64,000 nt of DNA from an uncultured Lentisphaerales bacterium (GCA_964615975.1 CAZTTH010000008.1:13814-77813), one strand, 5' to 3'; shown: positions 3,800 to 21,410, counted from the first letter of the stretch. Made by a program: numbers and translations. Notes: a model not told the origin generated them from the sequence alone.

Positions 3800-5611
3800 A
3801 TGTCACGTTATATCATCGGCATCGATTTAGGCACAACCAATATCGCCATATCCTATCTGGATCTGGAATCCGACACGCCCACAGTGGAACTCTTTTCCGT
3901 CCCCCAACTGGTGGCGCCGGGAGAGATCGATGCGCTTCCACTGCTCCCCTCATTTCTCTATCTCCCGCCCGAGGCGGATGTGGAACGCGGCATTTATGAT
4001 CTGCCGTGGGCAGAGAAACCCCAACATTGTGTTGGCACGTTGGCGCGCAAGAACGGGCCGCTGGCGCCCGGGAAGGTGATTGCTTCGGCCAAATCCTGGC
4101 TGTGCACACCGACCGTCGATCGGCTGGCGCCGATTCTGCCGTGGGGTCAACCTGCGACGGCAGGCAAGATCTCCCCGATTGACGCGACCCGCTATTATCT
4201 CGAGCATCTCAAAGGCGCTTGGAACCAGCATTTTGCCATGGACGATTCCACCCTCGCATTTGAACAGCAAAAAATCATTGTCACCGTGCCCGCCTCCTTC
4301 GATGCCGTGGCCCGGGAATTGACGGTCAAGGCGGCGGAACTGGCAGGATTGACAATTAATTTGCTTGAAGAACCACAGGCGGCGTTTTACGCCTGGCTGC
4401 ATGAGCATGAGAAGAATTGGCGCAAGATGGTGGCGATCGGCAAGCGCATACTGGTCTGCGATATCGGCGGCGGCACCACCGATTTCAGCTTGATTCAGGC
4501 GGTTGACGATAACGGCAGTGTCGGCCTTGAGCGGGTCGCGGTCGGCAATCACATCCTGCTAGGTGGGGACAACCTGGACCTGGCGCTGGCAGTCTATCTT
4601 TCCGAAAAACTCAAACGCGACAAGGGGATCAAGCTCGATCTCAATCAGTTCACCGCCATGACCCATTCCTGCCGAGAAGCCAAGGAGAAGCTGTTCTCGA
4701 GCGCTAAACCGAAACCGCAGAAAATCACCGTGCTGGGACGCGGCAGCAGTGTCATCGGCGGCACGATCACCACGGAACTTACCTTGGAGGAATTGACCAC
4801 GGTGGTGCTGGAGGGATTTTTCCCCCCCTGCGAGCTAAGTGACCAACCGACAACACAAAAGCGACTGGGATTACGCGAATTCGGCTTGAATTACGAGTCC
4901 GATCCGGTGATAACCAAGCATTTGGCGGCGTTTCTTTCCCGGCACTCAGACACGGCGGGGGCCGCCGGCCTGCCAGAGATGATCCTCTTCAACGGCGGCG
5001 TCACCAAAGCCGACAGCATCTGCCAGCGCATCATCGACAACCTGAGAAAATGGCATGGCAACTCTGAAGCCTCGGAAATCACCGTTCTCACCGGCACGGA
5101 TCCCGACACGGCCGTGGCGATCGGCGCCTGCTGGTATGGTCATGTCAGTATTGGCAAAGGCATTCGCATCAAGGCCGGCAGCGCGTTCTCCTATTATGTC
5201 GGGGTGGAATCATCACAACCGGCAATACCCGGATTTCAACCGCCATTGCAGGGACTGTGCGTAGCGCCATTTGGCCTCGAAGAAGGCAGCACTGTCGATA
5301 TTCCCTACACCGGCCTGGGCCTGGTGGTTGGTGAACGCACCGACTTCCAGTTCTTCGCCAGCACTGATCACAAGGAAGATCAATGCGGTACGATCATCGC
5401 CGATGTCGAAGAAGCCGGACTGCACACCCTGCCGGTGCTGACCGCCGAACTGCCGGCGGATGAAGCCACCATCCCTGCCGGCACCCTCCTGCCTATCCGC
5501 CTCAAGACCGTGCTCACCGAAATCGGCACTCTGCAGCTCTGGTGCCTGGAAGAAAACGGCGACCGCCAGTGGCAGCTCGAATACGAACTCCGCGCCCGCG
5601 ACGCGGATTAG
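3800..5611 (+). CDS. Hsp70-family (DnaK-like actin-fold ATPase) protein, noncanonical
   Basis: IGIDLGTTNIAISY, DIGGGTTDFSL and NGGVTK motifs. Its 603-aa length and divergent C-terminal substrate domain argue against housekeeping DnaK. Confidence 0.8.
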   Translation: MSRYIIGIDLGTTNIAISYLDLESDTPTVELFSVPQLVAPGEIDALPLLPSFLYLPPEADVERGIYDLPWAEKPQHCVGTLARKNGPLAPGKVIASAKSWLCTPTVDRLAPILPWGQPATAGKISPIDATRYYLEHLKGAWNQHFAMDDSTLAFEQQKIIVTVPASFDAVARELTVKAAELAGLTINLLEEPQAAFYAWLHEHEKNWRKMVAIGKRILVCDIGGGTTDFSLIQAVDDNGSVGLERVAVGNHILLGGDNLDLALAVYLSEKLKRDKGIKLDLNQFTAMTHSCREAKEKLFSSAKPKPQKITVLGRGSSVIGGTITTELTLEELTTVVLEGFFPPCELSDQPTTQKRLGLREFGLNYESDPVITKHLAAFLSRHSDTAGAAGLPEMILFNGGVTKADSICQRIIDNLRKWHGNSEASEITVLTGTDPDTAVAIGACWYGHVSIGKGIRIKAGSAFSYYVGVESSQPAIPGFQPPLQGLCVAPFGLEEGSTVDIPYTGLGLVVGERTDFQFFASTDHKEDQCGTIIADVEEAGLHTLPVLTAELPADEATIPAGTLLPIRLKTVLTEIGTLQLWCLEENGDRQWQLEYELRARDAD

Positions 5612-5789
5612 AGTGGATGCAGTTCACCGTTTGGAACAACGCTATCTGGATCACCCAGGATGAAATTTTAATCCATCCAAAAATTTGCTTGGAAAATGAT
5701 AATTTTGCCGTCACCATCTGACTACCATAACAGATATACTGCACATGAATGATGGCTATTCATCTTCCCGTCAGGTTGGGCAAGGCAGC

Positions 5790-7862
5790 TTAAGCTCGTA
5801 AGTCATCCAGGAATTCTGAGGCTGGTTCAATGCCTGTGACCAGTAAATGATCCCTTGCCCGTGTACAAGCGACATAAAGCAAGTGACGTTCAGTGTCGTA
5901 GACCTCTTGCAAATCGGCATCGTCACCGACTGTTTCAATACGTTCCTGTAAGGGGATAATCTCGTCATCACAGGATATCACGGCCACGGCGCGGAATTCA
6001 AGCCCCTTGGCCAGGTGCATGGTGCAGATCGATACATGACCACTGCTCGTCTCGACATGGTCATCGAGGATATTGAATGGCAAACCCGACTCCTTGACTG
6101 CATCTTGAGCTCGTTCCAGTTGCCCTGGTGAACGCACGAAGACGCCGAATTCATGGGGTAGGAGACCGGCTTTCGTGAGCTCGGCAATCCATGTACCAAC
6201 AGAACTTATTTCGTCATTTTCACTCTTGAACACGCGAATGTCGGGTAATGGACCATTGAAGATCGAAATTGTATCGCTCCGATCTTCTCGATTGCCGTCC
6301 ACATCAGTAACTTCCGGACCAAGCAGACGATCAGCTTGCTGGCGGATTTGATGGGATGTGCGATAATTGATTCGCAGCGTGCGGGAACGACCGCGGATAT
6401 CAACACCGAGTGATTTCCAGGAGAAGGGTTGTTGGAAAATACGCTGACCAAGATCACCGGCAAAGAATAAAGCGTTGGAGCGCTCACCACCAAGCACGGC
6501 AAGGAAGCGGAGTTGTGAAACACTGAGATCCTGTGCCTCGTCAACAACTACAAAATCGAAGGGTAGCTTTTTGCTTTCCACCAATGTGGACGACAAGGCA
6601 GTGAAAATCCCCGCATGAGTGGATAACTTCCGCTCTTTCAATCCACTGCTGACCTGCTCAAAGATAGACCAGAGTACCACTCGTCGCTTTTCGGGCAGCC
6701 GGGTTTTGCGGCCAAGGCGGGCTACATCGCGGTAAGACTCCCATGTTTCCAATTGCCACGCATCGACGACTTGTTCCCATTCGGTAACCAGGAAATGCAG
6801 ACTGAACTTGTGATCTCCCACCACTTTCGCCGCGACATTGAGCAATTCCCGCACGATATCACGAGTGGCCAGGTTCACCTTGCCACATTGTGATTTAAAG
6901 AGTCGGAGACCGATGGCATTCAGGGAGTAAACTTCAATGCGTTCGACAAGACGCGGTTCGTTGCCGACCAATCGTTTTAGCTTGGTACGAAGCGCATTTG
7001 CCAGCGTGTCGGAAAAGGTTGTGAGCAGGATGCGGGCATCGGGATAGGCGCGGGCCAGATACACTGCCCGATGCAACGCCACAATCGTCTTTCCGGTTCC
7101 AGCCGATCCTGAAACACGGGATGGTCCATTTTGGTCGCGTTCCACCCATTGACGCTGTTCGGGATGGAGAAAAACAGTCCACTTCTCCCAGGGGAAATCG
7201 AGAGCACATTGAAGCTCTTCGATATTGTTCATCACCCGGAAGCGGCGTTGCGCATCGGGGTGATCAAACGGACTTGCAATCGGCATGGCCGGTTGAATCA
7301 CTCGCGGTTTGCCACCGGTGGCAAGTTCCAGGAGCGCTTCAGCCGCTTCCCCGGGCAGACGTTCCGCTAACAATAACAGGCTGTCTTCATTAACCTGGCG
7401 CACATCATTCAACCATTCTGCCGGCACGCCATAGCCAAGCAGTTCTTCATCGGAATTGGCGGTAAACAGGGGTGGTTTCGGTAGCGCCGGCAATTCCTGT
7501 TGCACATACACTGGTACATAGACCTCCTTCACCGTCTCGCGAATTTCCACGAGCTGAGCCGCCCCCGTCTTGGGATGCGTTTCCAGTTTCCGGCGTTGCG
7601 CCCAATTATAGGCTTTATCGTGGTGATCGACATAACAGAGCATCAAACTGGTACCGGTTTTGTGAACGATGAGCCGAATATCACTGGTTGCTCGAATCGA
7701 CCAGAAGTTGGCATCTTTGGCGCCCTCAATACGATGGCATTGCATCCCGGGATTGAGGGGATTCATCTGCAGGTCAAATGCCGTTGTCTTGACCGCTTTC
7801 TGCTCATCGCCGGTCAGGCGTGCAAGGCTATCGGTGAAGGTGGCGGCAATGCGGAAGTTCAT
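5790..7862 (-). CDS. UvrD-like SF1 helicase (Walker A GSAGTGKT, DEAQD) with an N-terminal ~90-aa RelE/ParE-like fold
   Basis: Helicase motifs were read from the translation. The N-terminal segment ..ANFWSIRATSDIRLIVHKTG.SLMLCYVDHHDKAY matches the RelE/ParE C-terminal pattern. Confidence 0.75.
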   Translation of the reverse strand: MNFRIAATFTDSLARLTGDEQKAVKTTAFDLQMNPLNPGMQCHRIEGAKDANFWSIRATSDIRLIVHKTGTSLMLCYVDHHDKAYNWAQRRKLETHPKTGAAQLVEIRETVKEVYVPVYVQQELPALPKPPLFTANSDEELLGYGVPAEWLNDVRQVNEDSLLLLAERLPGEAAEALLELATGGKPRVIQPAMPIASPFDHPDAQRRFRVMNNIEELQCALDFPWEKWTVFLHPEQRQWVERDQNGPSRVSGSAGTGKTIVALHRAVYLARAYPDARILLTTFSDTLANALRTKLKRLVGNEPRLVERIEVYSLNAIGLRLFKSQCGKVNLATRDIVRELLNVAAKVVGDHKFSLHFLVTEWEQVVDAWQLETWESYRDVARLGRKTRLPEKRRVVLWSIFEQVSSGLKERKLSTHAGIFTALSSTLVESKKLPFDFVVVDEAQDLSVSQLRFLAVLGGERSNALFFAGDLGQRIFQQPFSWKSLGVDIRGRSRTLRINYRTSHQIRQQADRLLGPEVTDVDGNREDRSDTISIFNGPLPDIRVFKSENDEISSVGTWIAELTKAGLLPHEFGVFVRSPGQLERAQDAVKESGLPFNILDDHVETSSGHVSICTMHLAKGLEFRAVAVISCDDEIIPLQERIETVGDDADLQEVYDTERHLLYVACTRARDHLLVTGIEPASEFLDDLRA
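7767..7862. repeat. Direct repeat copy 1: start codon plus first 32 codons of the helicase gene
   Basis: Matches 10030-10125 with 12 mismatches in 96 nt by hand alignment. Confidence 0.7.
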
Positions 7863-7932
7863 GAACTTTCCTCACCCGTCACTTACAATCGTTTTCAGTT
7901 TTCATCTCAGGATATCCTCGATATAACTCGGA

Positions 7933-8361
7933 TCATTTAGCATAATGGCATTCCATAACAGTATCGGCGATCAGTTGTGCTATAGTCAGATTATCTTGAT
8001 GAGAAATCCCATGAATTCCGCTATGAGACGGATCATTGTCTTCAGGTTCATGAATGAACTGCAACTGACGCGAATCATTCGATTCATTTTTTACAAAATT
8101 CCTGGTGTTTCCAACATTCACCACTGCAAACATACCCGTTGATGCCACATTGAATTTTTTAGCAAAAATTCGTCTTACTTCTTCAATTTCTTGAACACGA
8201 GAAGTTTTCTTGAGATATTCCAGCCAATTCACGGACAGATAAGTTTCATCATCTCGAAGCATGAATGAGGCACCGGTTGGTAGTCCAGTGGAAGGTGAAA
8301 GACTCCGAGGTTTACAATATCTTGAAACGTGATCGGAATCCTGGATAATGTCATTTCTCAT
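7933..8361 (-). CDS. Hypothetical protein, 142 aa (cassette gene C)
   Basis: ATG start. It overlaps the upstream gene by 11 nt. No recognisable domain. Confidence 0.5.
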   Translation of the reverse strand: MRNDIIQDSDHVSRYCKPRSLSPSTGLPTGASFMLRDDETYLSVNWLEYLKKTSRVQEIEEVRRIFAKKFNVASTGMFAVVNVGNTRNFVKNESNDSRQLQFIHEPEDNDPSHSGIHGISHQDNLTIAQLIADTVMECHYAK

Positions 8362-9067
8362 TGATCGTCGTCCATCGTTCTGTATTGAAGGGCGTTATGA
8401 GTTGACGAAAATCTTTCATGCCACATTTTCCTGAATTCCTAATTATTCCGTCCTGAGACGGAGAAAATATCAAATAATTAAGGTTATAATCCGAAAGAAA
8501 CTCAATGGTCAGATTTCGGGATTTATCTTTGCGCCATTGACAGATAATTGTCCCATTAGGGGATGCCATAATGTCAGGATGACAAAGGTCTTTATTCTGG
8601 GATAAAAATCGCAAGCAAGCGCCGACAGATGTTGCACTTAATTTCGTTTCCTCTAGATCTTCGGCGAGAAGGTCATTCAATTCTGTAATGCGAGCCAGCA
8701 CTTCATCTTTCTTTAACAGTGTTCGGCTTGAAAGGCGAAAGTCTATTAATGTTGCTCGAACTTTGTCATATTCTGACCTTATATCTCCTAAAATAGCCAT
8801 GGAAGTATTTTCCGAGGATTCGATTTCAGCTATGATTGCTTTGTCCTCTGGGCAAACACTCAAATAGATCATGGGTGTAAAATAATTCCGCGGTTTGATA
8901 GATGAGAACGAGGTTTTGGGGTTGAGAGATGATTCCCACTGGGCAAGAATTGAATAATCCGTTTGTCTTCGAGATAACAACAATGATTGTACTTGATATT
9001 CATCTTGATCGAATAGTGCTTCGCGGGTTAAGTCAAAATCATCCTTGTATGCGACTGCGGCAGTCAT
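8351..9067 (-). CDS. Hypothetical protein, 238 aa (cassette gene B)
   Basis: ATG start. It has an ATGA overlap with gene A, which implies translational coupling. No recognisable domain. Confidence 0.55.
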   Translation of the reverse strand: MTAAVAYKDDFDLTREALFDQDEYQVQSLLLSRRQTDYSILAQWESSLNPKTSFSSIKPRNYFTPMIYLSVCPEDKAIIAEIESSENTSMAILGDIRSEYDKVRATLIDFRLSSRTLLKKDEVLARITELNDLLAEDLEETKLSATSVGACLRFLSQNKDLCHPDIMASPNGTIICQWRKDKSRNLTIEFLSDYNLNYLIFSPSQDGIIRNSGKCGMKDFRQLITPFNTERWTTINEK

Positions 9068-9858
9068 TTATCCTTCCTCCCCCAGAATTTTTTTTGGATA
9101 TTAATATCAGTAAAATCGCAAAATCCATAAACAATCCATTCATGCGCCAGGTCAAACCACTCCTCCATACGCTTATAACTGACGTCTCCACCCAAACCTT
9201 TAGCTGATAATTCGAGAATGTAAATAGGACTACCGTCCGTTTGTCTTTGACTAAAGCTCAAGCTTACCGTCAGTCGTCCAAAATCTTCAGGTAATGTAAA
9301 GATACCTCTCCATGCGTTTGATTCTGGTCCCGGCAGGAATCGGTCTTCATTTCGCCAAATCAAATCGGGGGCGAAATTTCCAACTTCTGCCGGCGTTTGC
9401 CATATGTCACCTATAGGTATGTGGTTGATGTAAGACAGTTCGCATTTCTGAATGTTGGGCTTGGGTATTTCTTGTTCGGAGAGAAAGGTACAAAATTCCT
9501 TAAGTTGATTCCAAAATTCGTTAATGACATTGGAATATCGCGGATAGGTTTCGTCACCTGTGATCCGCCGCCAATTAAACACGAAACAATTTCTCTGAAT
9601 TTGGATCAGCGATGTTTGGGTTGAGTTCAATAACCAAACACGCGGCCATGGCAGATCGTTCTCTGGGTCTAATGGTAAAAGTGGTTGTGCATGTTCACAA
9701 TGGGGATATCGCTCCTGAATTCTATCCCAATAACGTCCAATATGAGGAAGTTTGAATCCCGCCAATGATTTAAAATAAACACCAGCCACCACCTCATTGA
9801 TAGGCGGAGTTTCAAAATCCGGTAATTGTGTTTGTATGTCTTTTTTGTTTTTCTTCAT
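9064..9858 (-). CDS. Hypothetical protein, 264 aa (cassette gene A); its N-terminal motif resembles the uncharacterized TIGR04255 family (from memory)
   Basis: ATG preceded by an aaggataaatca SD. N-terminus reads LPDFETPPINEVVAGVYFKSL. Confidence 0.5.
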   Translation of the reverse strand: MKKNKKDIQTQLPDFETPPINEVVAGVYFKSLAGFKLPHIGRYWDRIQERYPHCEHAQPLLPLDPENDLPWPRVWLLNSTQTSLIQIQRNCFVFNWRRITGDETYPRYSNVINEFWNQLKEFCTFLSEQEIPKPNIQKCELSYINHIPIGDIWQTPAEVGNFAPDLIWRNEDRFLPGPESNAWRGIFTLPEDFGRLTVSLSFSQRQTDGSPIYILELSAKGLGGDVSYKRMEEWFDLAHEWIVYGFCDFTDINIQKKFWGRKDK

Positions 9859-9971
9859 TGATTTATCCTTATGTTTTTGGGTCTAACCAATTTCATATAT
9901 AACATTAACAAAATTAAGATAGACAATTCAATCCGTCTGAGGTCTGTATTTTACCCACACTGACCAAAATC

Positions 9972-10125
9972 ACCTGTCCTTTGCCCTGTCGAGTTTATAG
10001 AAGATCAGTGCCAATCTTGCCAGGTTAACCTGCAAATCAAATGCTGTCGTCTGAACTGCTTTCTGCTCATCGCCAGTCAGGCGTGCAAGGCTATCGGTGA
10101 AGGTGGCGGCGATACGGAATTCCAT
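9972..10125 (-). pseudogene. Relic 5' fragment of a helicase homolog (ATG + 32 conserved codons, then divergent, stop after 50 codons)
   Basis: Translation MEFRIAATFTDSLARLTGDEQKAVQTTAFDLQ then VNLARLALIFYKLDRAKDR*. It differs from the intact helicase N-terminus at only 2 of 32 residues. Confidence 0.55.
10030..10125. repeat. Direct repeat copy 2 of the helicase 5' end
   Basis: See 7767-7862. Confidence 0.7.
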
Positions 10126-10242
10126 TTCTTATTTCTAAACTTATTTATTTTATTTATAAATTTTTATTTTCAAAACAAGCGTTTTTGCAATGAGTTATGA
10201 TTTTCTTATAAATATTTTTTTATTAAAATCGCTGTTTTATTT
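10126..10242 (-). promoter_or_regulatory. Strongly AT-rich intergenic block, candidate promoter region for the cassette/helicase transcription unit
   Basis: About 115 bp almost devoid of G/C. Contains a TTGCAA...TAAAAAT-like arrangement on the minus strand and duplicated TTTATTTCTAAA words at both edges. Confidence 0.3.
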
Positions 10243-11898
10243 CTAAATAAGATGCCATTTCGGGTATTTTCGCGATCCTTCATTCCGGATTAAGTCCTCC
10301 CTTGCCATCGACTGAATCAGGTTAGTTACTTTGTTACGTTTCCGATCATCATCCAGGACATCAGATAATTTGCTGAATAAGAGCTTATCGATATCCTGGC
10401 GTGTGGCATGGCCATACTTCCGAATGAATTCCAGAATCATCTGCTTGTAATGTGCATCGTCGAAAGCGCGGTTTTTTATATACTGTGCTTTATCTCCAGT
10501 GGCCGAGGCGATATGCGCTGCCACGTATAGATTGGGATAACGGCCTTCAATAAGTTTATCATTTCGTAGCATATTCGCTTCATCTTTGGATACTGCTTGT
10601 CGTTTCTGAATTCGGTCTAATAAAATCACTTTGCTCAGCGGCAAATCTTTCTGATCCATAAGCATGACGGTGTAATTAGGGTCAATCACCTGGCCATGTA
10701 TGGTTACGATTACTTTACCCGGTGTCGATAGATTGAAATCGGGTAACGGATAAAATCGCTTGCGTTGCTCCTGGAACATCCGTCGAATGCCATATCCCAT
10801 GGTATCGATCATATTCACATTCACCATGGCGTCTGCGAGAAAACGATTACGATAGCGCTCTGGGGTCTTTTCCCGCAACGTATAATCCTCAAGCCCACCT
10901 TCGAAAAAATCTCCCGCACTCTCAAATACCAAACGATCAGGTCGCTCCGCGACAATTATCCGCGCTTGCTGGCGGTAATCCTGATGGGCAATCGCATTAT
11001 GCATTGCTTCCAGTACCACCCATTTTTCATACTTGGGGACTTCAAATGGAACCAGTTGACCGGGGACATCAAGCTTTTGCATGGTATTACGAATCCGGGC
11101 ATAACATTCACTGGTAGTCAGGAGAAATGGCGGACTGAAGTGTTCGTATGCCTGTTCCGTTCCTTCCAGTTTCCAGGTGATTTGCGCTACTGCCGGTTCC
11201 AGATGATAAGCCGCTTCTTCTCGCCCCAGCAACAGCAGACATGCACGGGTAATCGCGCCGTTCTTTGTCAATTTGGCTTTATCCAGCAATGTCGTATTCG
11301 ACCATGAATCAATCTCTCCGGCAAAGTACTTGTTTCGATTTTTATCACGAAAGTTCCGCCGAGCCGCCACGATTGCCTCCGAATTCAAGTCGTCAATAGT
11401 GGCTTGTGAACAGATTTCTGCTGACCAATCATCAAGCACTGCTTGTGACCGAATCTGCTCCAACTCATGAAGACTTAAGGCGACCAGCGACTCCCCATCG
11501 CGACCATACCAATGCCCTTTGAAGGAGACCGGCAACCCGGGCGGCGCCGCGGGAACCTGAAACATAATGACCCGGCCAGCGGCATGATACGCAATGTGAA
11601 TATCGATAAAACTCATGCGATTGGTTTGATTGGCAATTTCATGTTTAAGGCTATTCAAATAGTCTGCTTTGTCGCGATAACGACTCCCACAAATGCTCCG
11701 ATCATCATTGGCGATGCCGAACACCAGCCAGCCACAGGGTTGATGCTTGAGGTTTGCTTCATTCGCCAACGCTGAAAAATATTGCCCCAGTTTATCGAAG
11801 GAGAAATCATTTTTCGCTTCTTTGAACTCCACCCATTCCGTTTCATGGGGAAGCTGTCGTAGTTCATCAAGTTTATCAAGTAATTGCTGATTCGTCAT
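10243..11898 (-). CDS. AlbA_2 (Schlafen-like) DNA-binding + HATPase_c_4 ATP-binding protein of the RM-associated 'RecG-like C-terminal' type
   Basis: 551 aa with a typical N-terminus (LPHETEWVEFKEAK). Its ATG overlaps the mod stop as ATGA. Confidence 0.6.
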   Translation of the reverse strand: MTNQQLLDKLDELRQLPHETEWVEFKEAKNDFSFDKLGQYFSALANEANLKHQPCGWLVFGIANDDRSICGSRYRDKADYLNSLKHEIANQTNRMSFIDIHIAYHAAGRVIMFQVPAAPPGLPVSFKGHWYGRDGESLVALSLHELEQIRSQAVLDDWSAEICSQATIDDLNSEAIVAARRNFRDKNRNKYFAGEIDSWSNTTLLDKAKLTKNGAITRACLLLLGREEAAYHLEPAVAQITWKLEGTEQAYEHFSPPFLLTTSECYARIRNTMQKLDVPGQLVPFEVPKYEKWVVLEAMHNAIAHQDYRQQARIIVAERPDRLVFESAGDFFEGGLEDYTLREKTPERYRNRFLADAMVNVNMIDTMGYGIRRMFQEQRKRFYPLPDFNLSTPGKVIVTIHGQVIDPNYTVMLMDQKDLPLSKVILLDRIQKRQAVSKDEANMLRNDKLIEGRYPNLYVAAHIASATGDKAQYIKNRAFDDAHYKQMILEFIRKYGHATRQDIDKLLFSKLSDVLDDDRKRNKVTNLIQSMAREDLIRNEGSRKYPKWHLI

Positions 11899-14800
11899 GG
11901 GTTCACCCGGAATACCTTCATTACCTCGTCTCCAAGATGGTTGATTACTTTGATGGCGATGCGGCCGGACTTCGGCTTCTCGAATGGGCGGGAGGTGTCA
12001 CTGTTCAGAGTGGCCCAGGCGTCGGCGTTGATCTCGGCTTTGAGAGTGGTCTTGAGGGCGCTGTAGGGATCGTTGGCGCCAAGGAAATATGCATGGCGGA
12101 CAAAGAAGCTTTCTTCATTGTAATCGGTGTCGATGAACCAGCAGGCAATGCCATCGGTATTGCAGCTTTCTACTTCACCGGTTTGGGGTTTGAAGACATC
12201 CACTCCATTTACAGTGACCTGGAAATAGTGGCGAGTGGTCAGGGGAGAGTGGATAGCGATTTGATCAATGCGTTTAGCATTTTGTTGATCTTGGCACAAT
12301 TGTTCAATAAGTTTTCGCAGTCCTTCCTGGAAAGAAGTTCCAGCCTTTCGGACAAGATCAGAAAGGTTTCCAACTCCGCCAGCGATCCCCGCGCAATGCC
12401 AAGCGATTGTAGAAACTCCCCCGTGCTCCTGCGGGCCTGCCCTTCGGCGATGTTTGCCGGGACGGAGGTCACTGCCCGTCGCATTTGTGATGTAATCCCA
12501 TATCTCTCGGCGGCAGGAAAGCTGCGCGTAATCGCGTAGGTCTGCACCGCCAAGTCGATTGATTTCTGCCAGACTATTAACTCCCGATATGAGCTTATAG
12601 ATTTCATAAGGTGCTATTCTCCTTTCTGAACTATCCACTAACCACTCTTCACTTGCCACTTCAATATCAGGTTCCCCGAATATCACAAACAAGTTGCCTT
12701 TGCCGGTGTTCTTGAGATCTTCAGCCATGTGGAGGTCGGCGTTCATGCGGGCTTTGAGCACTGGGATGCGGCCCAGCTTCTTGAATTCGGTGGTGTGCGC
12801 TTCGTAGTTAAAAGCGCAGACGATCAAGACATCAAACCCGGCATCGCCGGCTTCGCGGGCGGCGGCGACGAGATCGGCGCGCTGGACGGTGCCGAACTCG
12901 GGGCCGATGAAGATTCCAGCACGGATTTCCGTGCCGGAATCAGTGGATAGTGAGGAGTGGTTAATGGCATATTTTTCTTGTTGATCACCCTTCACTAACC
13001 ACTCACCACTTGCTTCAAACCGCCCTTCGGCGCAGACCAATTCGCCCGGCCAGGGAACCAACGAGGTGAAAGTGATCCGATCCTCCTTGTGCGCCTGCTG
13101 CACCCCTGCGGTCTTGAGGTTTTCCAGAACCATCTGGGGGAATGACTGCTTTCCATATTCGACACCGCCTTCCAACATGGTGTCGATCAATTCGTCGTCC
13201 TCGTCGACCCCGAGCACACGATGAGGTGAAAGACTCTCCACGGTGAAGGGACCGGCGACGCGGACTGTCTTCTTGTCCTCATAGGGTTTGTCGTAGAGAT
13301 ATTCGACATCAGCCTTGGCGGAAATCGACGCATCAATTTCCTTTTGGCGGGCAATTCGTTTGTGCCACCAGTCGGAATGCAGCTTCAGAATGTGGGACAG
13401 ACATTCTTGTCTGTCTTTAGGGGGGAGTTTGGCGGTGGAAGAAGCAGACAGGAATGTCTGCTCCACACTGGCAGATTCGCGCGGAATTTCCCATTCTTCC
13501 CATTTCATATTAAGCGCGGTATTGAGCTCTGCTCGAAGAAATTCCAGCTCTGGTTGGAATTTCTCCCAGATAACATCGATCTCGGCGTTGTTGGCGATGG
13601 ACTTGAGCGTGATGTGTGGCACACGTTCATAGACGAAGCCGTGGCGGATGTTCCCCTGCACCGGTTGCGAACTTGGGGCGGTGCGAGTGACTTCGGCTTC
13701 CTTGAGCTGACCTTCAATGGAATCGACTAGTAGGTAAAAGGGATACCGTGCGCCCATGATGCGAGCACGGGCCAATGCCAGCGCCACGCGTGAGGTGTCG
13801 ATCGTGATCCAACGGCGCCCCCATTGCTCGGCGACGGTGGCGGTGGTACCAGAACCGCAGGTCGGGTCAAGTACGAGGTCACCGGGATCGGTGGCCAAGA
13901 GAAGGCATCGTTTTATTGCTTCTGTAGCAGTCTGAACGACAAAAATCTTTGGATCTGCACGGCTTTGAATGCCCCCGATATCATCCCAGACGTTTGAAAG
14001 TGTATGAACGGGAAAATCTTCAATGTAGCGAACGTAATTTAATATCTGCTTGCTCGGAGAAATACGATTTGCCAATTCGAGTCTGGCCATGCCATTGGGT
14101 GTTGTCTTCCAACTGCCTTGGTGTTCGCAGTTTCGTAGTGTCACTAACACTACTGGGTTTGCTTCTGACGTTGTCTTGTCGAGACGGAAAATTCGTGACG
14201 CGGGCGGGAAGGCATCAGGGAATTTTTCACTCGCTTGTTTTAGTGTAATTCTTGTTCCATCTGGTAGTTCGACTCCGTTGTATTTTGTGCCGCCATGTTC
14301 TCCTGGTCTCTTCTCGGCGTACAGATGCCGTGCTTTCGCATGGGTCTTATGCTTTGCGAACCAGAGAATGAAATCGCATTTGTTATTCACGAAGTCTTGA
14401 ACAAGACCTCCTGTCTTTACGAATGTGATTTGGCTGACACAATTCTCTTCTCCGAAGACCTCATCCATCACTGCCCGGACACGGTGAACATTTTCATCGC
14501 CGATCTGGACGAAGATGGAGCCGGAATCTGTTAACAAGTCACGGGCCACTGTCAACCGGTCCCGCAGGTAGGTAAGGTAGCTATGGATGCCTTCGCGCCA
14601 GGTATCGCGAAAGGCTTTAACTTGTTCGGGTTCACGTGTAATATGATCAACCTTGCCGTCCTTCACATCACGGCTGGTGGTGGACCACTGGAAATTGCTA
14701 TTGAACTTGATGCCATAAGGCGGATCGATATAGATGCACTGCACCTTGCCGCGCAACCCCTCGCGCTCGGCCAGGCTGGCCATGACCTGGAGGGAGTCGC

Positions 14801-15215
14801 CGAGGATCATGCGGTTGGACCAATTCTGATCGTGTTGATAGAACTCAGTCTTGTCCACGCCCTGAGGAATGCCATTAAAATCCGCGAATAAGTCTGGCTG
14901 CCACGATTCGGTGGAGTGATTAGTGGATAGTGAAGAGTGGCGCAGTAGATCGTCAATCAATACCTTGGGGTGAATTTTCTCCTGAATGTATAACGGCGGG
15001 GCATGGACAACGAGATCGCTCCAGTCCTGTTCATCCTTGCCGCGCCAAACGAGTTGGGGATCGAGATCGGTGTTGCGGGGATAACGCACCTGCTTGGGGT
15101 TCTGCTGCTCCTTCTCCAGCACCGACTGGTATTCGGCGGTGGGAATGTTCTTGCGCGTCGCGTCGTCGTGCTTGAGTGTTTCGACTGTCTTGGTTTTATT
15201 GTTTGCATTGGCCAT
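11895..15215 (-). CDS. mod: Type III-like N6-adenine DNA methyltransferase (Mod), long form (~1100 aa); ORF stays open across a nested four-helix-bundle gene
   Basis: Motif IV DPPYG precedes motif I DPTCGSGTT (beta-class order). The C-terminus ..GRIAIKVINHLGDEVMKVFRVNP matches the family. I prefer the ATG at 15215 (MANANNK) over the track's TTG at 15230. Confidence 0.7.
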   Translation of the reverse strand: MANANNKTKTVETLKHDDATRKNIPTAEYQSVLEKEQQNPKQVRYPRNTDLDPQLVWRGKDEQDWSDLVVHAPPLYIQEKIHPKVLIDDLLRHSSLSTNHSTESWQPDLFADFNGIPQGVDKTEFYQHDQNWSNRMILGDSLQVMASLAEREGLRGKVQCIYIDPPYGIKFNSNFQWSTTSRDVKDGKVDHITREPEQVKAFRDTWREGIHSYLTYLRDRLTVARDLLTDSGSIFVQIGDENVHRVRAVMDEVFGEENCVSQITFVKTGGLVQDFVNNKCDFILWFAKHKTHAKARHLYAEKRPGEHGGTKYNGVELPDGTRITLKQASEKFPDAFPPASRIFRLDKTTSEANPVVLVTLRNCEHQGSWKTTPNGMARLELANRISPSKQILNYVRYIEDFPVHTLSNVWDDIGGIQSRADPKIFVVQTATEAIKRCLLLATDPGDLVLDPTCGSGTTATVAEQWGRRWITIDTSRVALALARARIMGARYPFYLLVDSIEGQLKEAEVTRTAPSSQPVQGNIRHGFVYERVPHITLKSIANNAEIDVIWEKFQPELEFLRAELNTALNMKWEEWEIPRESASVEQTFLSASSTAKLPPKDRQECLSHILKLHSDWWHKRIARQKEIDASISAKADVEYLYDKPYEDKKTVRVAGPFTVESLSPHRVLGVDEDDELIDTMLEGGVEYGKQSFPQMVLENLKTAGVQQAHKEDRITFTSLVPWPGELVCAEGRFEASGEWLVKGDQQEKYAINHSSLSTDSGTEIRAGIFIGPEFGTVQRADLVAAAREAGDAGFDVLIVCAFNYEAHTTEFKKLGRIPVLKARMNADLHMAEDLKNTGKGNLFVIFGEPDIEVASEEWLVDSSERRIAPYEIYKLISGVNSLAEINRLGGADLRDYAQLSCRREIWDYITNATGSDLRPGKHRRRAGPQEHGGVSTIAWHCAGIAGGVGNLSDLVRKAGTSFQEGLRKLIEQLCQDQQNAKRIDQIAIHSPLTTRHYFQVTVNGVDVFKPQTGEVESCNTDGIACWFIDTDYNEESFFVRHAYFLGANDPYSALKTTLKAEINADAWATLNSDTSRPFEKPKSGRIAIKVINHLGDEVMKVFRVNP
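12239..12607 (-). CDS. Four-helix-bundle protein (TIGR02436 / '23S rRNA intervening-sequence protein' family), nested inside the mod ORF in a different frame
   Basis: ELIVWQKSIDLA..FP..ERYGITSQMRRAVTSVPANIAEGQARRSTGEFLQSLGIARGSLAELETFLILS.. is an unmistakable family signature. It has its own SD (aaaggag). Confidence 0.75.
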   Translation of the reverse strand: MKSISSYRELIVWQKSIDLAVQTYAITRSFPAAERYGITSQMRRAVTSVPANIAEGQARRSTGEFLQSLGIARGSLAELETFLILSERLELLSRKDCENLLNNCAKINKMLNALIKSLSTLP

Positions 15216-15376
15216 GTTATTAAATCCCAAAATCAGGTTGTTGTCTACATTTATTCGGCCCGCTAATCACGCAAAACACACGAATGTTCAGTTCTCAGTT
15301 AAGAATGAAGGCTGATTTGCTTGGATTGAATATTCGTGTCGTTCGTCTGATTCGTGGTTAAATTTGAACGGTGGTG

Positions 15377-15777: not shown

Positions 15778-16350
15778 TCAAACTGCCAATCGGTCAGTGA
15801 CTACATCATCGATCATCTTGTTGAACTCGGCTTCAACCTTTTTAGTAAAATCCGCCTCGATCTGATAAACCATGCGTTCGCTCGCCCGGATTTCGCAGAC
15901 CTCTTCAAGCAGTTCCTCGAAGTATCGCCGGTCGAAACGAGTGCCGTGTTTAAAGCGGTCGGAATCGATAGCGAAACCTTTGAGGATGTAGTCCTTTAAC
16001 CGATCGGTAGCCCAGGTACGAAATTGGGTCGCTCGCACGCTTTTGACGCGATACCCAACAGCTATGATCGCTTCGAGGCTGTAAAGCTTCGTACGATACT
16101 GCTTGCCATCAGCGGCAGTTACCGAGGATTCCTCGGTAACTGCTGATTCGATTAGTTCTTGATCGGCGAAAATATTCTTTAAATGCAAGGAGATATTGTC
16201 GGTGGAACACTCATAAAGTTCGGCTATGAGTTTCTGGGTGAGCCAAACATTTTCGTTCTCGAAGCGAACTTCAACGCGAGCCCGCCCATCTTCACTTGCG
16301 AAGATGGTGATATTGTCGATGCGTATAGGTTGCGAATTTTTAGACATCAT
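15778..16350 (-). CDS. RhuM-family virulence-associated protein
   Basis: NISLHLKNIF..YSLEAIIAVGYRVKSVRATQFRTWAT block. Overlaps the fic stop by 1 nt. Confidence 0.6.
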   Translation of the reverse strand: MMSKNSQPIRIDNITIFASEDGRARVEVRFENENVWLTQKLIAELYECSTDNISLHLKNIFADQELIESAVTEESSVTAADGKQYRTKLYSLEAIIAVGYRVKSVRATQFRTWATDRLKDYILKGFAIDSDRFKHGTRFDRRYFEELLEEVCEIRASERMVYQIEADFTKKVEAEFNKMIDDVVTDRLAV

Positions 16351-17435
16351 TAACTTCCTTCCTGCATGGATTCTCTGGTCAAAATAGCATTCAAGGCGGT
16401 GTTAATGTAGTAATTAGTCCGCCCTATTTTTTGTTTTTTAAGGAAGCCGCCGCCGGTCAACGCATCGAGATATTTGGTGGCGGTGAGGCGCGACACCTTC
16501 AGATCACGTTCGACGAATTCGATCTTGGTATAGGGGTGGGTAAACAGGTTATTGATCAGATCCTGACTGTAAAACTTGTACTCCGCGCGAATACGGTGCT
16601 TCGCATCCATCAACGCCGCATTAATGGCATGGATGGTTTCGATGGCATCACCGGCGGTTGATTCAATGGCGGTAAGCAGGTAAAGCACCCACTCTTCCCA
16701 TGCATCGTTTTCGCGAACACTCTGAAGCAGTCGATAATAATCCGGTTTGGTGCGGACGATGTGGCGGCTGAGATATAGCACCGGGATATCGAGCAGACCT
16801 TCCTTCACCAAGTAAAGCACATTAACGATGCGGCCGGTGCGGCCATTGCCATCATAGAACGGGTGGATACTTTCAAACTGGTGATGGATCAACGCCATTT
16901 TAATGAGCGGGTCAGCGGCAAATAAATCACGATCATTGATGAAACGCTCAAGATCGCGCATGAGCGCGATAATGGTATCTGGATCTTGCGGCGGCATATA
17001 GATCGCCTGACCAGAGCCATCTTTCAACACAGTCCCTGGCAGTTTGCGGAAACCGGCGTTGTTTTGCTCCAGCTCTACCTGAATCTGAATGATATGGTTG
17101 ATGGTAAGCAGACCACTTTGTTGCACTAGATCGAATCCAACCCGTAAAGCCTGGCGATACCGTAGTACCTCCTTGGCGGCGCCATGGTGCAAGTTCTCGG
17201 GAAAAAGGTCATCTTTATATAATTCGTCATGAGTGGTCACGATGTTTTCTATGGCCGAACTATCCTTGGCCTCCTGTATTCCCAGAGTGTTGATGAGTAT
17301 CCCCTGGTTAGGAATGGAGGCGGCGACTCCCTTGAGTTCAGCTAGTTTACGACTTGTTAAAGCCAATTTTTTAAGGATAACGGGAGTATCGAATCTTATC
17401 GACGGCAAACGATCTAATGGCAGAATGGTGGTCAT
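16350..17435 (-). CDS. Fic/Doc family protein (AMPylation-type; motif HPFYDGNGRTGR) with a C-terminal wHTH-like region
   Basis: Canonical Fic motif HPFxDGNGRxxR was read in the translation. Confidence 0.85.
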   Translation of the reverse strand: MTTILPLDRLPSIRFDTPVILKKLALTSRKLAELKGVAASIPNQGILINTLGIQEAKDSSAIENIVTTHDELYKDDLFPENLHHGAAKEVLRYRQALRVGFDLVQQSGLLTINHIIQIQVELEQNNAGFRKLPGTVLKDGSGQAIYMPPQDPDTIIALMRDLERFINDRDLFAADPLIKMALIHHQFESIHPFYDGNGRTGRIVNVLYLVKEGLLDIPVLYLSRHIVRTKPDYYRLLQSVRENDAWEEWVLYLLTAIESTAGDAIETIHAINAALMDAKHRIRAEYKFYSQDLINNLFTHPYTKIEFVERDLKVSRLTATKYLDALTGGGFLKKQKIGRTNYYINTALNAILTRESMQEGS

Positions 17436-17537: not shown

Positions 17538-20500
17538 TCATAATGATGCCGGCCGCGGGTGTATTATCATGCTTAACATCCGATCAAATTCAAATTTAAC
17601 CTTCTTGGAAAAATCTGCCTCAATCTGATAAACATCATTGAACTCGGCGAATGCCCAGCGGCCAAACGTGCCCAGGTTGTTCACACCGGGTACCCAGTAG
17701 GTTTCGATGGCGGACTTCTTATCCTTGGCATCCTCGCGGCGGTAGCCTTTGATCTCAACAATCAGATGGAGGAGATCGTCGGGCCCGTGGCCGTCATCCA
17801 CGCGCACGATAAAGTCCGGCAGATACTTGCGGATTTCAGAACCATGGCGATAGGGCACTTCGAGGCCGAGGTTGTGATTTTTGACGTAGGCATGAACTTT
17901 AGGGTGCGACTCGGCGACCCGGCAGAACTCGGCTTCCCAATCGCTGTCGAGGATAACCCAGTTGATATGGCAACTCTTGGAACTGGTTTCCCAGCGGTCA
18001 CGGCGCGAGGTGTTAAAGCGAACATGGGCCGTGGAGCCCGTGGGATTATAAGGGTCGAGCAGGGCTTTGATGGGACGTTCTCCGACGAAGGCGCGGGTAA
18101 TACCGGCAGTAATGCGTTCGCAAGCTATATCAGCGAGCATTTTGTATTTTAACTGCGCGGGGTAAGTTCTACCCTTGCAAATCAAGCAAGTGTCCAGCCA
18201 ATGCTTGGCAATCCGTTTCAATTGTCCGAAAAGATTAAAATGGGCAGACTGCCCCGGGTCACGCCAATGATTCAGAACGAGATGGGAAGTCAATTCAAAA
18301 AGAATTTGTGATGGACGCACCTCTCTAGTATGATCGAGAGTCAGGTCGACAGTTTGTCCAATTATTCCAGACTGACGAGTCGTTGTTGCACCAACCAACT
18401 CCGGGGTAAGCTCAAGAATCGAGTCTTGGTCAAATTGGGCAATTAGACGATCATCGGGCAATTCAACACGATAGCCTGCCACACGGGGGAAAATTATCTC
18501 CAGATGATTTCTCTCTGGGCTAATGGCTTTCACTCGGACGGTTTGCGGGGGTGGTTGTGGGGGAGAGATTACGGGCTGGGCTGTAAAGTTAAAGGGAATG
18601 CCAATAATATCAGCATATTCTACATTGAACAATCCTTTATCCGATCCTTCCTCATTTAGCCAATAGGACCATCGCCTCAGAGCTCGGCCGATGACCTGTT
18701 CACATAGTAGCTGAGTACCAAAAGCCCGAACTCCAAGTACATGAGTGACAGTGTTGGCATCCCAGCCCTCGGTAAGCATGGAAACTGAAACAACACAACG
18801 AATGTCACTACCAAGTGTCCCAGGTTTGCCCACAGTGTTCATAACTTCCCGCAATAGGGTTGTATCGTCGAAATCTTTTCCTTCCCTCAATTGCTCCGCC
18901 AAGGGGCCGCCTCTTTCCATAACTTGACTCTTGAACTGAGTAATTTCAGGGGCTGCAACTGCTCGGAAGTTATCATCGAAACCTTCCCCCGATTCCAATT
19001 GAGCGCTGTCGATGAGCAATGTGTATGGGCGAGTTAATGGGTTGCCGTGCTCGTCATGATTTCGGAATAGTTCGAGACGTCCACCCACAGGCTTGAAGCT
19101 TCCATCCTCCTGCAGTTGATCAAAGCCAGAAATGAAATCGTAGATTAGCTTCGAAACGGCCGTGTTCTGACAAACAATGATAAAGCATGGCGGAACCGGG
19201 ATCCCTCTTTCTCGCCAACACTGAAAAGTTTTGGAATAGTGGCCATAGAGTGCTTCGAGTGCGGTTTGAAGTAAGGGGGGCAGGCTCAAAGGGTCAAGTC
19301 TAGACTGACCGCGCTTTTTCTTTGGCATTTTCGAGCGCACGTTCTCCCACAGATTTCTGAATAACGGAACGTCAGCTCCGGGTATGTTGTCCGAGACTGG
19401 AACCCGAGGCAATTTCACGATTCCGCACTCAATTGCGTCCATGAGTGAAAAATCGCTCATCGTCCAGTGGAACATCGTACCTTCTCGATATCCAGAGCCA
19501 CGGAGAAAGAAAGGTGTTGCAGAAAGATCGATTACACGAAGAAGACCGATTTTGCGATTCACTTTCTCAAGTCCCGAAATCCAAAGTCGTGCCGCCTTGT
19601 TGTTCTCCGCAGCTTCTTCCCTGGCTTCTCTCAGTGCGTTGCCAGAAAGAGGATTACCTTCTGAATCAGTGAACTGACTGTCGTCTGCAGGTTTCTCACG
19701 ATAACAGTGATGTGCCTCGTCATTTATAACAAGGATATTTTTCATGCCCATGAGTTCGGGCATGACACGTTGAATCATCTGGCCTTCGGTCTCAAGTGTT
19801 AGCGGATCATCACCGGTTCGGCCCTTGAGGAGTTGACGGTTGCCTTTTGAAAGATTGGTGCGCTCCCGGAGTTTGAAGGCATGGTAGTTGGTGATGACAA
19901 TCTTGGCCTTCTTGAGATCGTCGAGCATATCATGCGGCACGAGTTCGCGGCTAGCATAATAGCTGTCAGGATCGTGGGGTTGGAGGACGCGCAGACGATC
20001 CTTGATGGTCAGACCGGGGGCGACGATGAGGAACCCACGGCTGAAATATTTGCTGCCAGGGCGGCGGACAGCATTGATGGTTTGCCAGGCGATAAGCATG
20101 GCCATAACGGTGGTCTTGCCAGCGCCGGTGGCCAGTTTCAGGGCGAAGCGCATGAGTTCAGGATTGGCATCCTGATTAGCGCTTGCCAGGTAATCGAGCA
20201 ATTGTTTACTGCTCTTATAAAAGGGAGCGACTTCGGTCAGCCAGATGGCGGTTTCGACCGCTTCAATCTGACAGAAGAACGGGCGGAAGTCGCCGAATTT
20301 ATGGTGACGCCAGTGCTGCAGCAGGCGGGTTGTCTCGGGGCTAACCTGCCATTGGCCGGGATTGGACAACGCCCGCCAGGCATTCACATGGCGGCGAACT
20401 TCATTGATGTTGGACGTAGGATCGTATTGCTGATCCTTGGTCGAAAGCCCCTGGCCTTCGTCGAATACGAATTCTTCCTGAGCGGCGGATTGCTTCCGCT

Positions 20501-20654
20501 TCTTCGGTTTGGGAATAGGAGTGATAAACTCAGCCCGGCGACGACTCAGCATGATCCGCTGTGTCGGTTGTCCAGATTTATCCAATTCCCAGTGTCGACT
20601 TGGACACTCATAAGGCGAGTTGAGGATGGGGTGGTCGAAGAAGGGATTGGACAT
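17538..20654 (-). CDS. res: Type III-like restriction enzyme Res subunit (SF2 helicase with DEAH box, C-terminal PD-(D/E)xK-like nuclease region)
   Basis: Walker A GAGKT and VINDEAHH are present. The C-terminus carries DFIVRVDD...EIKGY. The last ~20 aa (VYQIEADFSKKVKFEFDRM) copy a segment of the RhuM C-terminus. Confidence 0.7.
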   Translation of the reverse strand: MSNPFFDHPILNSPYECPSRHWELDKSGQPTQRIMLSRRRAEFITPIPKPKKRKQSAAQEEFVFDEGQGLSTKDQQYDPTSNINEVRRHVNAWRALSNPGQWQVSPETTRLLQHWRHHKFGDFRPFFCQIEAVETAIWLTEVAPFYKSSKQLLDYLASANQDANPELMRFALKLATGAGKTTVMAMLIAWQTINAVRRPGSKYFSRGFLIVAPGLTIKDRLRVLQPHDPDSYYASRELVPHDMLDDLKKAKIVITNYHAFKLRERTNLSKGNRQLLKGRTGDDPLTLETEGQMIQRVMPELMGMKNILVINDEAHHCYREKPADDSQFTDSEGNPLSGNALREAREEAAENNKAARLWISGLEKVNRKIGLLRVIDLSATPFFLRGSGYREGTMFHWTMSDFSLMDAIECGIVKLPRVPVSDNIPGADVPLFRNLWENVRSKMPKKKRGQSRLDPLSLPPLLQTALEALYGHYSKTFQCWRERGIPVPPCFIIVCQNTAVSKLIYDFISGFDQLQEDGSFKPVGGRLELFRNHDEHGNPLTRPYTLLIDSAQLESGEGFDDNFRAVAAPEITQFKSQVMERGGPLAEQLREGKDFDDTTLLREVMNTVGKPGTLGSDIRCVVSVSMLTEGWDANTVTHVLGVRAFGTQLLCEQVIGRALRRWSYWLNEEGSDKGLFNVEYADIIGIPFNFTAQPVISPPQPPPQTVRVKAISPERNHLEIIFPRVAGYRVELPDDRLIAQFDQDSILELTPELVGATTTRQSGIIGQTVDLTLDHTREVRPSQILFELTSHLVLNHWRDPGQSAHFNLFGQLKRIAKHWLDTCLICKGRTYPAQLKYKMLADIACERITAGITRAFVGERPIKALLDPYNPTGSTAHVRFNTSRRDRWETSSKSCHINWVILDSDWEAEFCRVAESHPKVHAYVKNHNLGLEVPYRHGSEIRKYLPDFIVRVDDGHGPDDLLHLIVEIKGYRREDAKDKKSAIETYWVPGVNNLGTFGRWAFAEFNDVYQIEADFSKKVKFEFDRMLSMIIHPRPASL

Positions 20655-20949: not shown

Positions 20950-21410
20950 AAATTCATCGGCGGGTGTAAGCCGGATTCTGTCCTCTGGTGGTAACGCCGT
21001 GTTGATCATGACGGTTAAGCCATGAATCAACGCGGCTCCCAGAGTAACGACCATTTATCTGCGCGGTCTACCCGGAACTTATATCTTGCGAAACGGCACG
21101 GGCCGCGCCTTGTTCCCTATTTGACCTTGCTCCAGGATGGGTTTACCCTGCGATTCGGCTTGCGCCGGAATCCGGTGGGCTCTTACCCCACCATTTCACC
21201 CTTACCCCATCTTCACCGCCGGCAGGATGGTTCGCATCCCGCCGGCGGTGAAGATGAGGCGGTATATTTTCTGTGGCACTTTCCTGACCGAGGCGTCTGG
21301 TCCTCGATATCCGGGATTGCTCCCGGATTCCTCGCCCTGTGGAGTCCGGACTTTCCTCCATTTCAGGTGATGATCCTGAAACAGCGACCGTTCCCCGCCG
21401 ATGAAATTTG
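20950..21410 (-). ncRNA. rnpB: RNase P RNA, bacterial type A
   Basis: Minus strand reads GGAGGAAAGTCCGGACTCC, ..AGGAAAGTGCCACAGAAAATATACCGCC.., GGTAAGGGTGAAATGGTGGGGTAAGAGCCCACC and ..GACAGAATCCGGCTTACACCCGCC. The P1 pairing is ttcatcggcggg / cccgccgatgaa. Ends are approximate. Confidence 0.8.

Follow-up and report, generated by a model that had tools for sequence, protein, structure and literature searches.

In a 64,000-nucleotide stretch of DNA from an uncultured Lentisphaerales bacterium (GCA_964615975.1, CAZTTH010000008.1:13814-77813; the whole stretch is referred to here as the window, and positions are counted from its first nucleotide), three tightly coupled genes, A, B and C, lie between two direct repeats upstream of a UvrD-like helicase gene. 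Comparison of sequences indicates that this trio is probably an autonomous, conserved and horizontally mobile three-gene operon, carried here as cargo in the slot between the methyltransferase (Mod) and helicase (Hel) genes of a BPTD_3080-type restriction operon, and that one of the two repeats is a relic of a second helicase allele, left as a recombination scar. We consider this structural and evolutionary account quite probable. We also lean towards the fuller interpretation, that the trio is a toxin-antitoxin-like or abortive-infection cassette, brought as cargo into the slot by recombination anchored on homology and leaving that scar. The features of the trio and its immediate surroundings are as follows.

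5790..7862 (minus strand): UvrD-like helicase, 690 aa, with Pfam UvrD-helicase and UvrD_C matches and an N-terminal extension of ~230 aa
7762..7862 (minus strand): direct repeat, proximal copy; the start codon plus 32.7 codons of the resident helicase
7863..7932 (minus strand): intergenic spacer from C to the helicase, with a GAGGAAA Shine-Dalgarno-like motif; alignable with the spacer 3' of C in the marine locus L001
7933..8361 (minus strand): gene C, 142 aa, overlapping B by 11 nt
8351..9067 (minus strand): gene B, 238 aa, overlapping A by 4 nt
9064..9858 (minus strand): gene A, 264 aa, TIGR04255 family
9859..9951 (minus strand): leader upstream of A, with an AAGGA ribosome-binding motif
9952..10125 (minus strand): helicase relic, 58 codons of a different allele (tblastn), with an in-frame stop at codon 52
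10025..10125 (minus strand): direct repeat, distal copy, 101 nt; the start of the helicase relic
10126..10242 (minus strand): AT-rich block separating the relic ATG from the stop of the AlbA_2 gene; 15% GC

By base composition the trio is foreign to its surroundings. Total GC and third-position GC (GC3) are, for A, B and C in turn, 0.416/0.389, 0.400/0.372 and 0.394/0.308, as compared with 0.527/0.541 for the helicase and 0.524/0.586 for Mod. The original prediction, made from the window sequence alone, had described three coupled genes of 264, 238 and 142 aa with ATGA and 11-nt overlaps in a cassette that looked more AT-rich than the helicase; the coordinates are confirmed, and the computed GC3 (0.31–0.39 in the trio versus 0.54 in the helicase) bears out the impression of composition. 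In alignments, the leader of A is unlike both the helicase and the leaders of the other trios.

Gene A passes the NCBIfam hidden Markov model (HMM) TIGR04255 with 44.5 bits (E 1.7e-11; cut-off 30 bits). The protein has two tandem alpha+beta modules that together form one antiparallel sheet, the fold comparison lists TBP and the TBP-like domains of RnlA and LsoA, and Foldseek searches of the PDB return weak, low-TM matches only; we regard A as a putative sensor or regulator. Gene B has no Pfam, NCBIfam or PDB match in profile searches. An exhaustive profile search nonetheless collects 662 cluster representatives at E<=1e-3, mostly 210–300 aa in length, with a common C-terminal domain of ~115 aa and a variable N-terminus, and B itself is built in the same manner, with a variable N-terminal half and a conserved C-terminal domain of ~115 aa. 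B is a putative antitoxin or adaptor. The C-terminal domain also occurs on its own, as proteins of 113–160 aa, in three loci (L007 5847-6329, L009 44-385 and L010 1769-2110); the first of these is a phage-like contig of small same-strand open reading frames (ORFs) with PHROG matches, where the lone B domain could be a phage-encoded antitoxin mimic.

Gene C is predicted from its structural model to represent a new family with an ADP-ribosyltransferase (ART) fold. The model has the split beta-sheet by which this fold is recognized, and the comparison list includes Tse2 (5.9), a RES toxin (5.5), OspC3 and Tne2 (both 5.4) and DarT (5.1), followed by pertussis- and cholera-like toxins. Residues that are invariant or nearly so in the family (H11, R14, S43-V-N45-W46, H104, P106, D110 and S112-H113) fall in core strands 1, 2 and 4/5 of the model, and C is on this modeled fold a putative effector or toxin. 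A Rhizobium gallicum plasmid carries a C-family gene (L033 5860-6390; 176 aa, profile E 6e-22) next to a VapC/DUF433 pair; neither a TIGR04255 gene nor a B gene is annotated upstream of it, and it looks solo or differently partnered. Profile searches with A, B and C against Pfam, NCBIfam, PADLOC, PHROGs and the PDB give nothing beyond TIGR04255. In PADLOC-DB v2, with the models of embedded candidates (PDC) included, A and C have no match at E<=0.1, and the only match of B, to PDC-M32A (E 0.012 over 77 residues), is not significant. Neither TIGR04255 nor BPTD_3080 turned up in any paper in full-text literature searches.

Nine further loci, most of them without this helicase, have A, B and C in this order and with stop and start codons that overlap, and HMMs built from the A, B and C families match all nine trios. 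The first gene of seven of the other trios scores 47–134 bits on TIGR04255, every one tested being above the cut-off, and in 8/9 of these loci the GC content of the trio is below that of its flanks. The loci are the following, with L008, where only B and C are present, listed in addition to the nine.

L001-4: marine metagenome
L005: trio beside HmaB/HmaC/PglZ-like genes (Hma-like)
L006: short contig with the trio alone
L008: B and C only, then tRNA-Asn
L011/12: DISARM locus, trio directly upstream of DrmA-DrmB and after a PDC-S39 candidate
L013/14: flanks of aldo-keto reductase, PRAI and MFS transporter genes
L015-19: Nitrospinae, flanks of nitroreductase and RlmN genes
L027/28: Burkholderia cepacia, trio converging on a Mod-Res pair
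L029: Scalindua, housekeeping flanks
L030/31: flanks of amidase and isocitrate dehydrogenase genes

The Mod-Res pair of B. cepacia is homologous to the Mod and Res genes of the window (44% and 32% identity, respectively, by tblastn). Across the trios, the regions 5' of A and 3' of C have no common end sequence except for the C-helicase spacer that the window shares with L001. Profile and sequence scans of genome contigs with B, used either as a single sequence or as an alignment, found no locus.

Some of these loci have unusual structures of their own. In L001 (7732-8784), residues 29–263 of A are fused in frame behind residues 1–114 of a zinc alcohol dehydrogenase/quinone oxidoreductase, and in the marine metagenome a full alcohol-dehydrogenase gene lies 3' of the trio on the opposite strand. 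The two alcohol-dehydrogenase copies form an inverted repeat of 92–119 nt (L001 7998-8089 and 10711-10802, and the ends of L002), with arms that are 95% identical in L001 and 100% in L002. We rejected an assembly artefact as the source of the L001 inverted repeat, since its arms are not 100% identical and four independent assemblies agree. In the Nitrospinae locus L017 a direct repeat of 30 nt or more (2-31 and 2228-2257, 93% identity) flanks the trio, and four Nitrospinae contigs, L015, L016 and L019 among them, begin 84–220 nt upstream of A, so that the assemblies break at that repeat; this suggests a repeated element or variation in the presence and absence of the cassette. On the Mycobacterium paragordonae plasmid NZ_CP025547 (L032 5983-7722) a TIGR04255 gene directly follows a MobF relaxase; the next two genes, which are small and overlap (180 and 142 aa), have no B or C profile match, and TIGR04255 proteins may thus lead trios with different partners.

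The helicase, by comparison of gene orders, is the third core gene of a conserved Res-Mod-helicase restriction operon and stands outside the trio. The remaining genes of this operon in the window are listed below; they confirm the predicted restriction-modification (RM)/Fic/RhuM island next to rnpB.

10243..11898 (minus strand): Schlafen/AlbA_2 with HATPase_c_4, 551 aa (Pfam); cargo in the slot between Mod and Hel
11895..15230 (minus strand): Mod, type III-like DNA methyltransferase, 1111 aa; Pfam N6_N4_Mtase, PADLOC MTase_III 1355 bits
15474-15707: small ORF, 77 aa, between the RhuM fragment and Mod; faint RH3_dom match (E 0.008)
15778..16350 (minus strand): truncated RhuM ORF, 190 aa, of which the last ~29 codons are a relic of the Res C-terminus
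16350..17435 (minus strand): Fic protein adenylyltransferase; cargo in the slot between Res and Mod
17538..20654 (minus strand): Res, BPTD_3080-family restriction endonuclease, 1038 aa; core gene
20951-21403: rnpB

Res scores 1319 bits on NCBIfam NF046055 (cut-off 800), the AlbA_2 gene overlaps the Mod stop by 4 nt, and the 77-aa ORF may be an orphan antitoxin or regulator of ribbon-helix-helix-like (RHH) type. Full-length homologues of the helicase, including the N-terminal extension, are encoded on plasmids (47–61% identity by tblastn), together with homologues of Mod (52–60%) and Res (51–65%) in the same gene order and strand. The operons compare as follows.

Pseudomonas avellanae plasmid: Res(BPTD_3080)-Mod-Hel; Mod stop overlaps the Hel ATG, no insert
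Gemmobacter plasmid: Res-hyp139-Mod-hyp192-Hel
Rhizobium plasmid: Res-hyp307-Mod-hyp273-hyp110-Hel
Sphingomonas plasmid: Res-DUF3883-[Mod]-hyp119-Hel
Window: Res-Fic-RhuM'-RHH-Mod-AlbA_2-[AT block, relic]-A-B-C-Hel

The genes found in the slots of the plasmid operons are mutually unrelated and have no Pfam match, and since slot contents differ from operon to operon, the Res-Mod and Mod-Hel junctions can be regarded as variable cargo slots. The helicase family has a conserved N-terminal domain of ~95 aa (residues 1–95; window 7577-7862), with homologues in L020-L026, no Pfam match and the motif M[ED]FRIA.TFT.SLARL...EQKA.K..AFDLQ...FHKLD.AKD.NFWSVRV..D.R.IVH; this domain may resemble a RelE/ParE-like toxin fold. 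The window Mod has ~110–130 extra residues (~877–1004; ~12220-12600) relative to its plasmid homologues, which align to residues 14–876 and 1005–1110 with only ~15 residues between.

A repeat search of positions 5000-11000 returns a sole long direct repeat, of 101 nt at 86% identity, with copies 2263 nt apart that both start exactly at an ATG when read on the minus strand. Aligned in register from this ATG, the copies differ at 14/101 nt, 12 of them within the first 96, and include a perfect run of 35 nt (positions 16–50 of the repeat). Third codon positions account for ten of the differences and first positions for the other four, with second positions unchanged (binomial P = 0.004); at the protein level the first 32 codons yield E2N and Q25K, and V33M comes just after them. 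Such a third-position bias is unlikely for neutral decay, and both copies were therefore coding for most of the time since they diverged. The original prediction had described a 96-bp repeat with 12 of 96 nt and 2 of 32 codons changed, and had read the distal copy as a once-functional helicase homologue rather than a fresh duplication. The in-register alignment reproduces the counts, and the synonymous bias of the differences agrees with the reading of the distal copy. The repeat is real, with its extent to be revised: it is 101 nt long, and helicase homology at the distal copy continues for 56–58 codons.

The distal copy is the beginning of a relic ORF of 51 aa (10125..9970) with a stop in frame at codon 52, and the relic matches helicase N-termini over 56–58 codons (10125-9952; tblastn E 8e-21 to about 1e-20). 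Compared in register with the resident helicase, its identity is 86% over nt 1–101, about 40% over nt 102–180, and there is none beyond. The two parts have opposite affinities. Over the first 101 nt relic and resident agree at 87/101 nt and 23/33 third positions, as against 70–74/101 nt and 13–16/33 third positions when either is compared with the plasmid homologues; the relic tail (residues 35–59, LARLALIFYKLDRAKDR*FWSVWVK) is identical to the Gemmobacter homologue at 15/25 residues and to the P. avellanae homologue at 12/25, and to the resident gene at 6/25. The relic is thus the 5' end of a different helicase allele, and it appears from these alignments that relic and resident gene recently share only their first ~34 codons. 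A simple Campbell-type or double-crossover model predicts uniform divergence between relic and resident and is contradicted by the break, and since single-step models do not predict it, we take the conserved helicase 5' end to have a recombination history of its own.

Two further junctions bear on how the trio arrived. In L001, C is followed by a spacer alignable with 7863-7932 and then by MEFRIADTYMESHAKLTGDEQKVL, a helicase N-terminus cut after 24 codons; the likeness of the junctions indicates that ABC, spacer and helicase 5' end moved as one piece in the common ancestor of both cassettes. At the other slot of the window operon, the RhuM ORF matches only positions 1–97/252 of its Pfam profile and ends in a tail, fused in frame (...VYQIEADFTKKVEAEFNKM...), that copies the Res C-terminus (...VYQIEADFSKKVKFEFDRM...), with VYQIEADF[ST]KKV..EF..M common to both; by tblastn, Res residues 1008–1036 (17547-17633) match 15870-15784. 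This scar mirrors the helicase relic, as a duplicated core-gene end at a cargo border. The variable slots, the second relic at the Res 3' end and the unit shared with L001 all fit the earlier proposal of a cassette swap anchored on a conserved gene end, and the presence of paired relics at one operon is a mechanistic clue to how embedding arises. We envisage an ancestral locus with the tightly packed order Res-Mod-AlbA_2-HelX, into which a segment that extended from the leader of A across the trio and its spacer into a helicase 5' end would have recombined by way of the conserved helicase 5' end; the insertion would have stranded codons 1–58 of HelX, with the 101-nt repeat as its scar. The exact path of recombination in this scheme is one that we infer.

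The AT-rich block is bracketed by an 11-nt direct repeat, TTTAGAAATAA (10129-10139 and 10237-10247). The stop codon of AlbA_2 falls within one copy, and the end of the other is 3 nt short of the relic ATG. With the block removed, the relic ATG would lie 9 nt after the AlbA_2 stop, which is the spacing in the plasmid operons. The block may itself have been inserted into a junction of AlbA_2 and helicase that was formerly compact; this point is weak, since a match in such low-complexity sequence could be due to chance. On the minus strand of the block a consensus scan detected no sigma-70-like promoter, nor did it detect a terminator between the trio and helicase genes; such a scan is uninformative for a host other than E. 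coli.

Other explanations of this arrangement have points in their favor. The repeats might be target-site duplications or att sites of a self-mobile element, the trio encoding or recruiting its own integration machinery, and repeats of flanking sequence do bracket the trio in three unrelated loci (the window, L017 and L001/L002). Against this, A, B and C have no recombinase, transposase or integrase fold, the repeats have no common sequence between loci, L011 and L013 lack flanking repeats, and the relic differs at synonymous sites and runs on for 58 codons as a divergent allele, unlike a target duplication; we judge a self-mobile element improbable, and a target-site duplication as such was set aside on account of the divergence of the relic allele. 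An integron cassette was rejected as there is no attC, no integrase between the Hsp70-like gene and rnpB, and the repeat is helicase coding sequence; a diversity-generating retroelement was rejected as there is no reverse transcriptase and the differences are third-position transitions and transversions, mostly synonymous. The original prediction joined the trio and the downstream helicase in a single four-gene anti-phage unit driven from the AT-rich block. All four genes share a strand, the spacers are short and nothing resembling a terminator intervenes; L001, too, has this spacer and a helicase 5' fragment after its trio, and in L011/12 the trio abuts another helicase gene, drmA. This grouping nevertheless has to be given up as a unit, and we now think it has little chance of being correct: Res-Mod-Hel with the N-terminal domain of the helicase is present without the trio on at least five plasmids, the trio lacks this helicase in at least seven loci, where it is found beside housekeeping genes, a tRNA or convergent genes, trio and helicase differ in GC3 by about 0.2, and no promoter was detected in the AT-rich block within the limits of the scan described above. 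Least probable of all is that the 51-codon relic ORF is retained for a function, as a leader peptide or to regulate the operon as a decoy of the helicase N-terminus. It keeps its ATG directly after the AT-rich block, and a comparison with the resident gene shows its first 34 codons to be intact, with almost all changes synonymous, and the remainder decayed; recent truncation of a functional allele accounts equally for that pattern, the ORF has no recognizable Shine-Dalgarno motif, and the five plasmid operons have no comparable small ORF, each giving one match to the helicase N-terminus by tblastn.

As to what the trio does, our preferred account, drawn from predicted fold, gene coupling and context, is a toxin-antitoxin (TA)-like or abortive-infection system, to which we give slightly less than an even chance. 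C would be an NAD+-using ART-fold effector that ADP-ribosylates nucleic acid or protein or consumes NAD+, B, which is translationally coupled to it, would hold it in check, and A would sense or regulate; the trio may serve as a backup to the host restriction system, in the way that PrrC does to EcoprrI. The roles of C as toxin, B as antitoxin and A as sensor are putative, as is the anti-phage function. The genes are small and adjacent, with the 4- and 11-nt overlaps kept in other trios, as in TA operons, and the trio is embedded on the same strand between core genes both here (Mod and Hel) and in L011/12 (PDC-S39 and DrmA-DrmB). In the trio we found neither a toxin neutralized by a cognate antitoxin nor a SecB-like chaperone, as in TA and toxin-antitoxin-chaperone systems, nor the composition of DarTG, there being no macro domain in A or B and no DarT match for C in Pfam or PADLOC. 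The trio as originally proposed, a candidate for anti-phage defense or abortive infection, is strengthened by the modeled ART fold of C and by its recurrence in or beside immune operons, and is amended in that the helicase is not part of it.

Several points weigh against our interpretation. None of A, B and C matches any PADLOC v2 model, A and B have no assignable function, and toxicity, NAD+ use and defense are backed by no experiment and no sequence-level family match. The window proteins tested are singletons at 90% identity, with no close relative in the collections. About half of the trio loci have ordinary housekeeping flanks, so that the association with defense is suggestive, and the fall in identity between relic and resident helicase (86% over nt 1–101, 39% over nt 102–180) defeats one-step recombination models, so that an earlier mosaic history must be assumed. 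A purely selfish TA module, or some other non-immune role, is a serious rival: the trio would accumulate in defense operons that tolerate insertions (a 'genomic sink') and give no protection from phage. The housekeeping flanks fit this well, as does the related TIGR04255-led trio just after the MobF relaxase on the Mycobacterium plasmid. We think it unlikely all the same, as the trio is embedded in the same orientation in two different multi-gene immune operons and adjacent to two more, and the B-domain homologue of the phage-like contig would fit a phage counter-measure. Since many TA systems act against phage, the selfish reading overlaps with the one we prefer. A more specific form of the defense reading, a little less probable again than the selfish module, is that the trio is a new anti-phage abortive-infection system that has specialized as a guard within immune operons based on methylation (type III-like RM-helicase, DISARM and Hma-like). 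Such a guard would fire when the host system is inhibited, and would be exchanged as cargo between operons without an integrase, with the helicase 5' end and the Res 3' end as anchors and the relics as footprints.

Among known systems, an accessory toxin module embedded within an immune operon has precedents. The 'guilt-by-embedding' examples include PrrC in the EcoprrI type I RM system, BrxU in BREX, and the HEC/PDC candidates (Payne et al. bioRxiv 10.1101/2024.01.29.577857); BPTD_3080-type Res-Mod-helicase operons were outside the survey of that study, which did not discuss the origin of embedding. The trio likewise consists of same-orientation accessory genes between the core genes of an immune operon, and is also found in DISARM and beside Hma-like genes; it differs in the type of host operon and in that the window locus preserves recombination scars. 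Relative to other BPTD_3080-type operons, the window has full-length homologues of Res, Mod and helicase in like order and strand, and carries the largest cargo load seen here, with seven extra ORFs and two relics.

CmdTAC (an ART toxin, an antitoxin and a SecB-like chaperone; Nature 2024, PMC11618068) is likewise a tripartite operon with an ART-fold effector. By analogy the trio would release a toxin upon infection. DarTG, RES-Xre/MbcTA and ParST are two-gene TA systems with ART-fold toxins, whereas the trio has no macrodomain, Xre or helix-turn-helix partner, and its third gene, A, has no counterpart in them; C is smaller (~140 aa) than the ART-fold proteins of these systems and KptA/Tpt1, with no profile-level match to these families. 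Integron cassettes are alike in their promoterless-looking gene sets, their direct repeats of ~100 nt and their exchange between related platforms, and differ in that there is here no integrase or attC-like structure, and in that the repeat, which varies between loci, is made up of core-gene coding sequence from the 5' end.

The three families, their combination and the type of host operon are not described in the libraries and papers searched. If the trio is active, it would add a new minimal ART-fold enzyme family (~140 aa) and two partner families to the NAD+-based immune and toxin systems, and would give a first functional context to TIGR04255, a sporadically distributed family without a known role. 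The two relics within one operon are a rare physical record of accessory defense genes becoming embedded, a mechanism that the guilt-by-embedding study left open and that is directly testable at the window locus.

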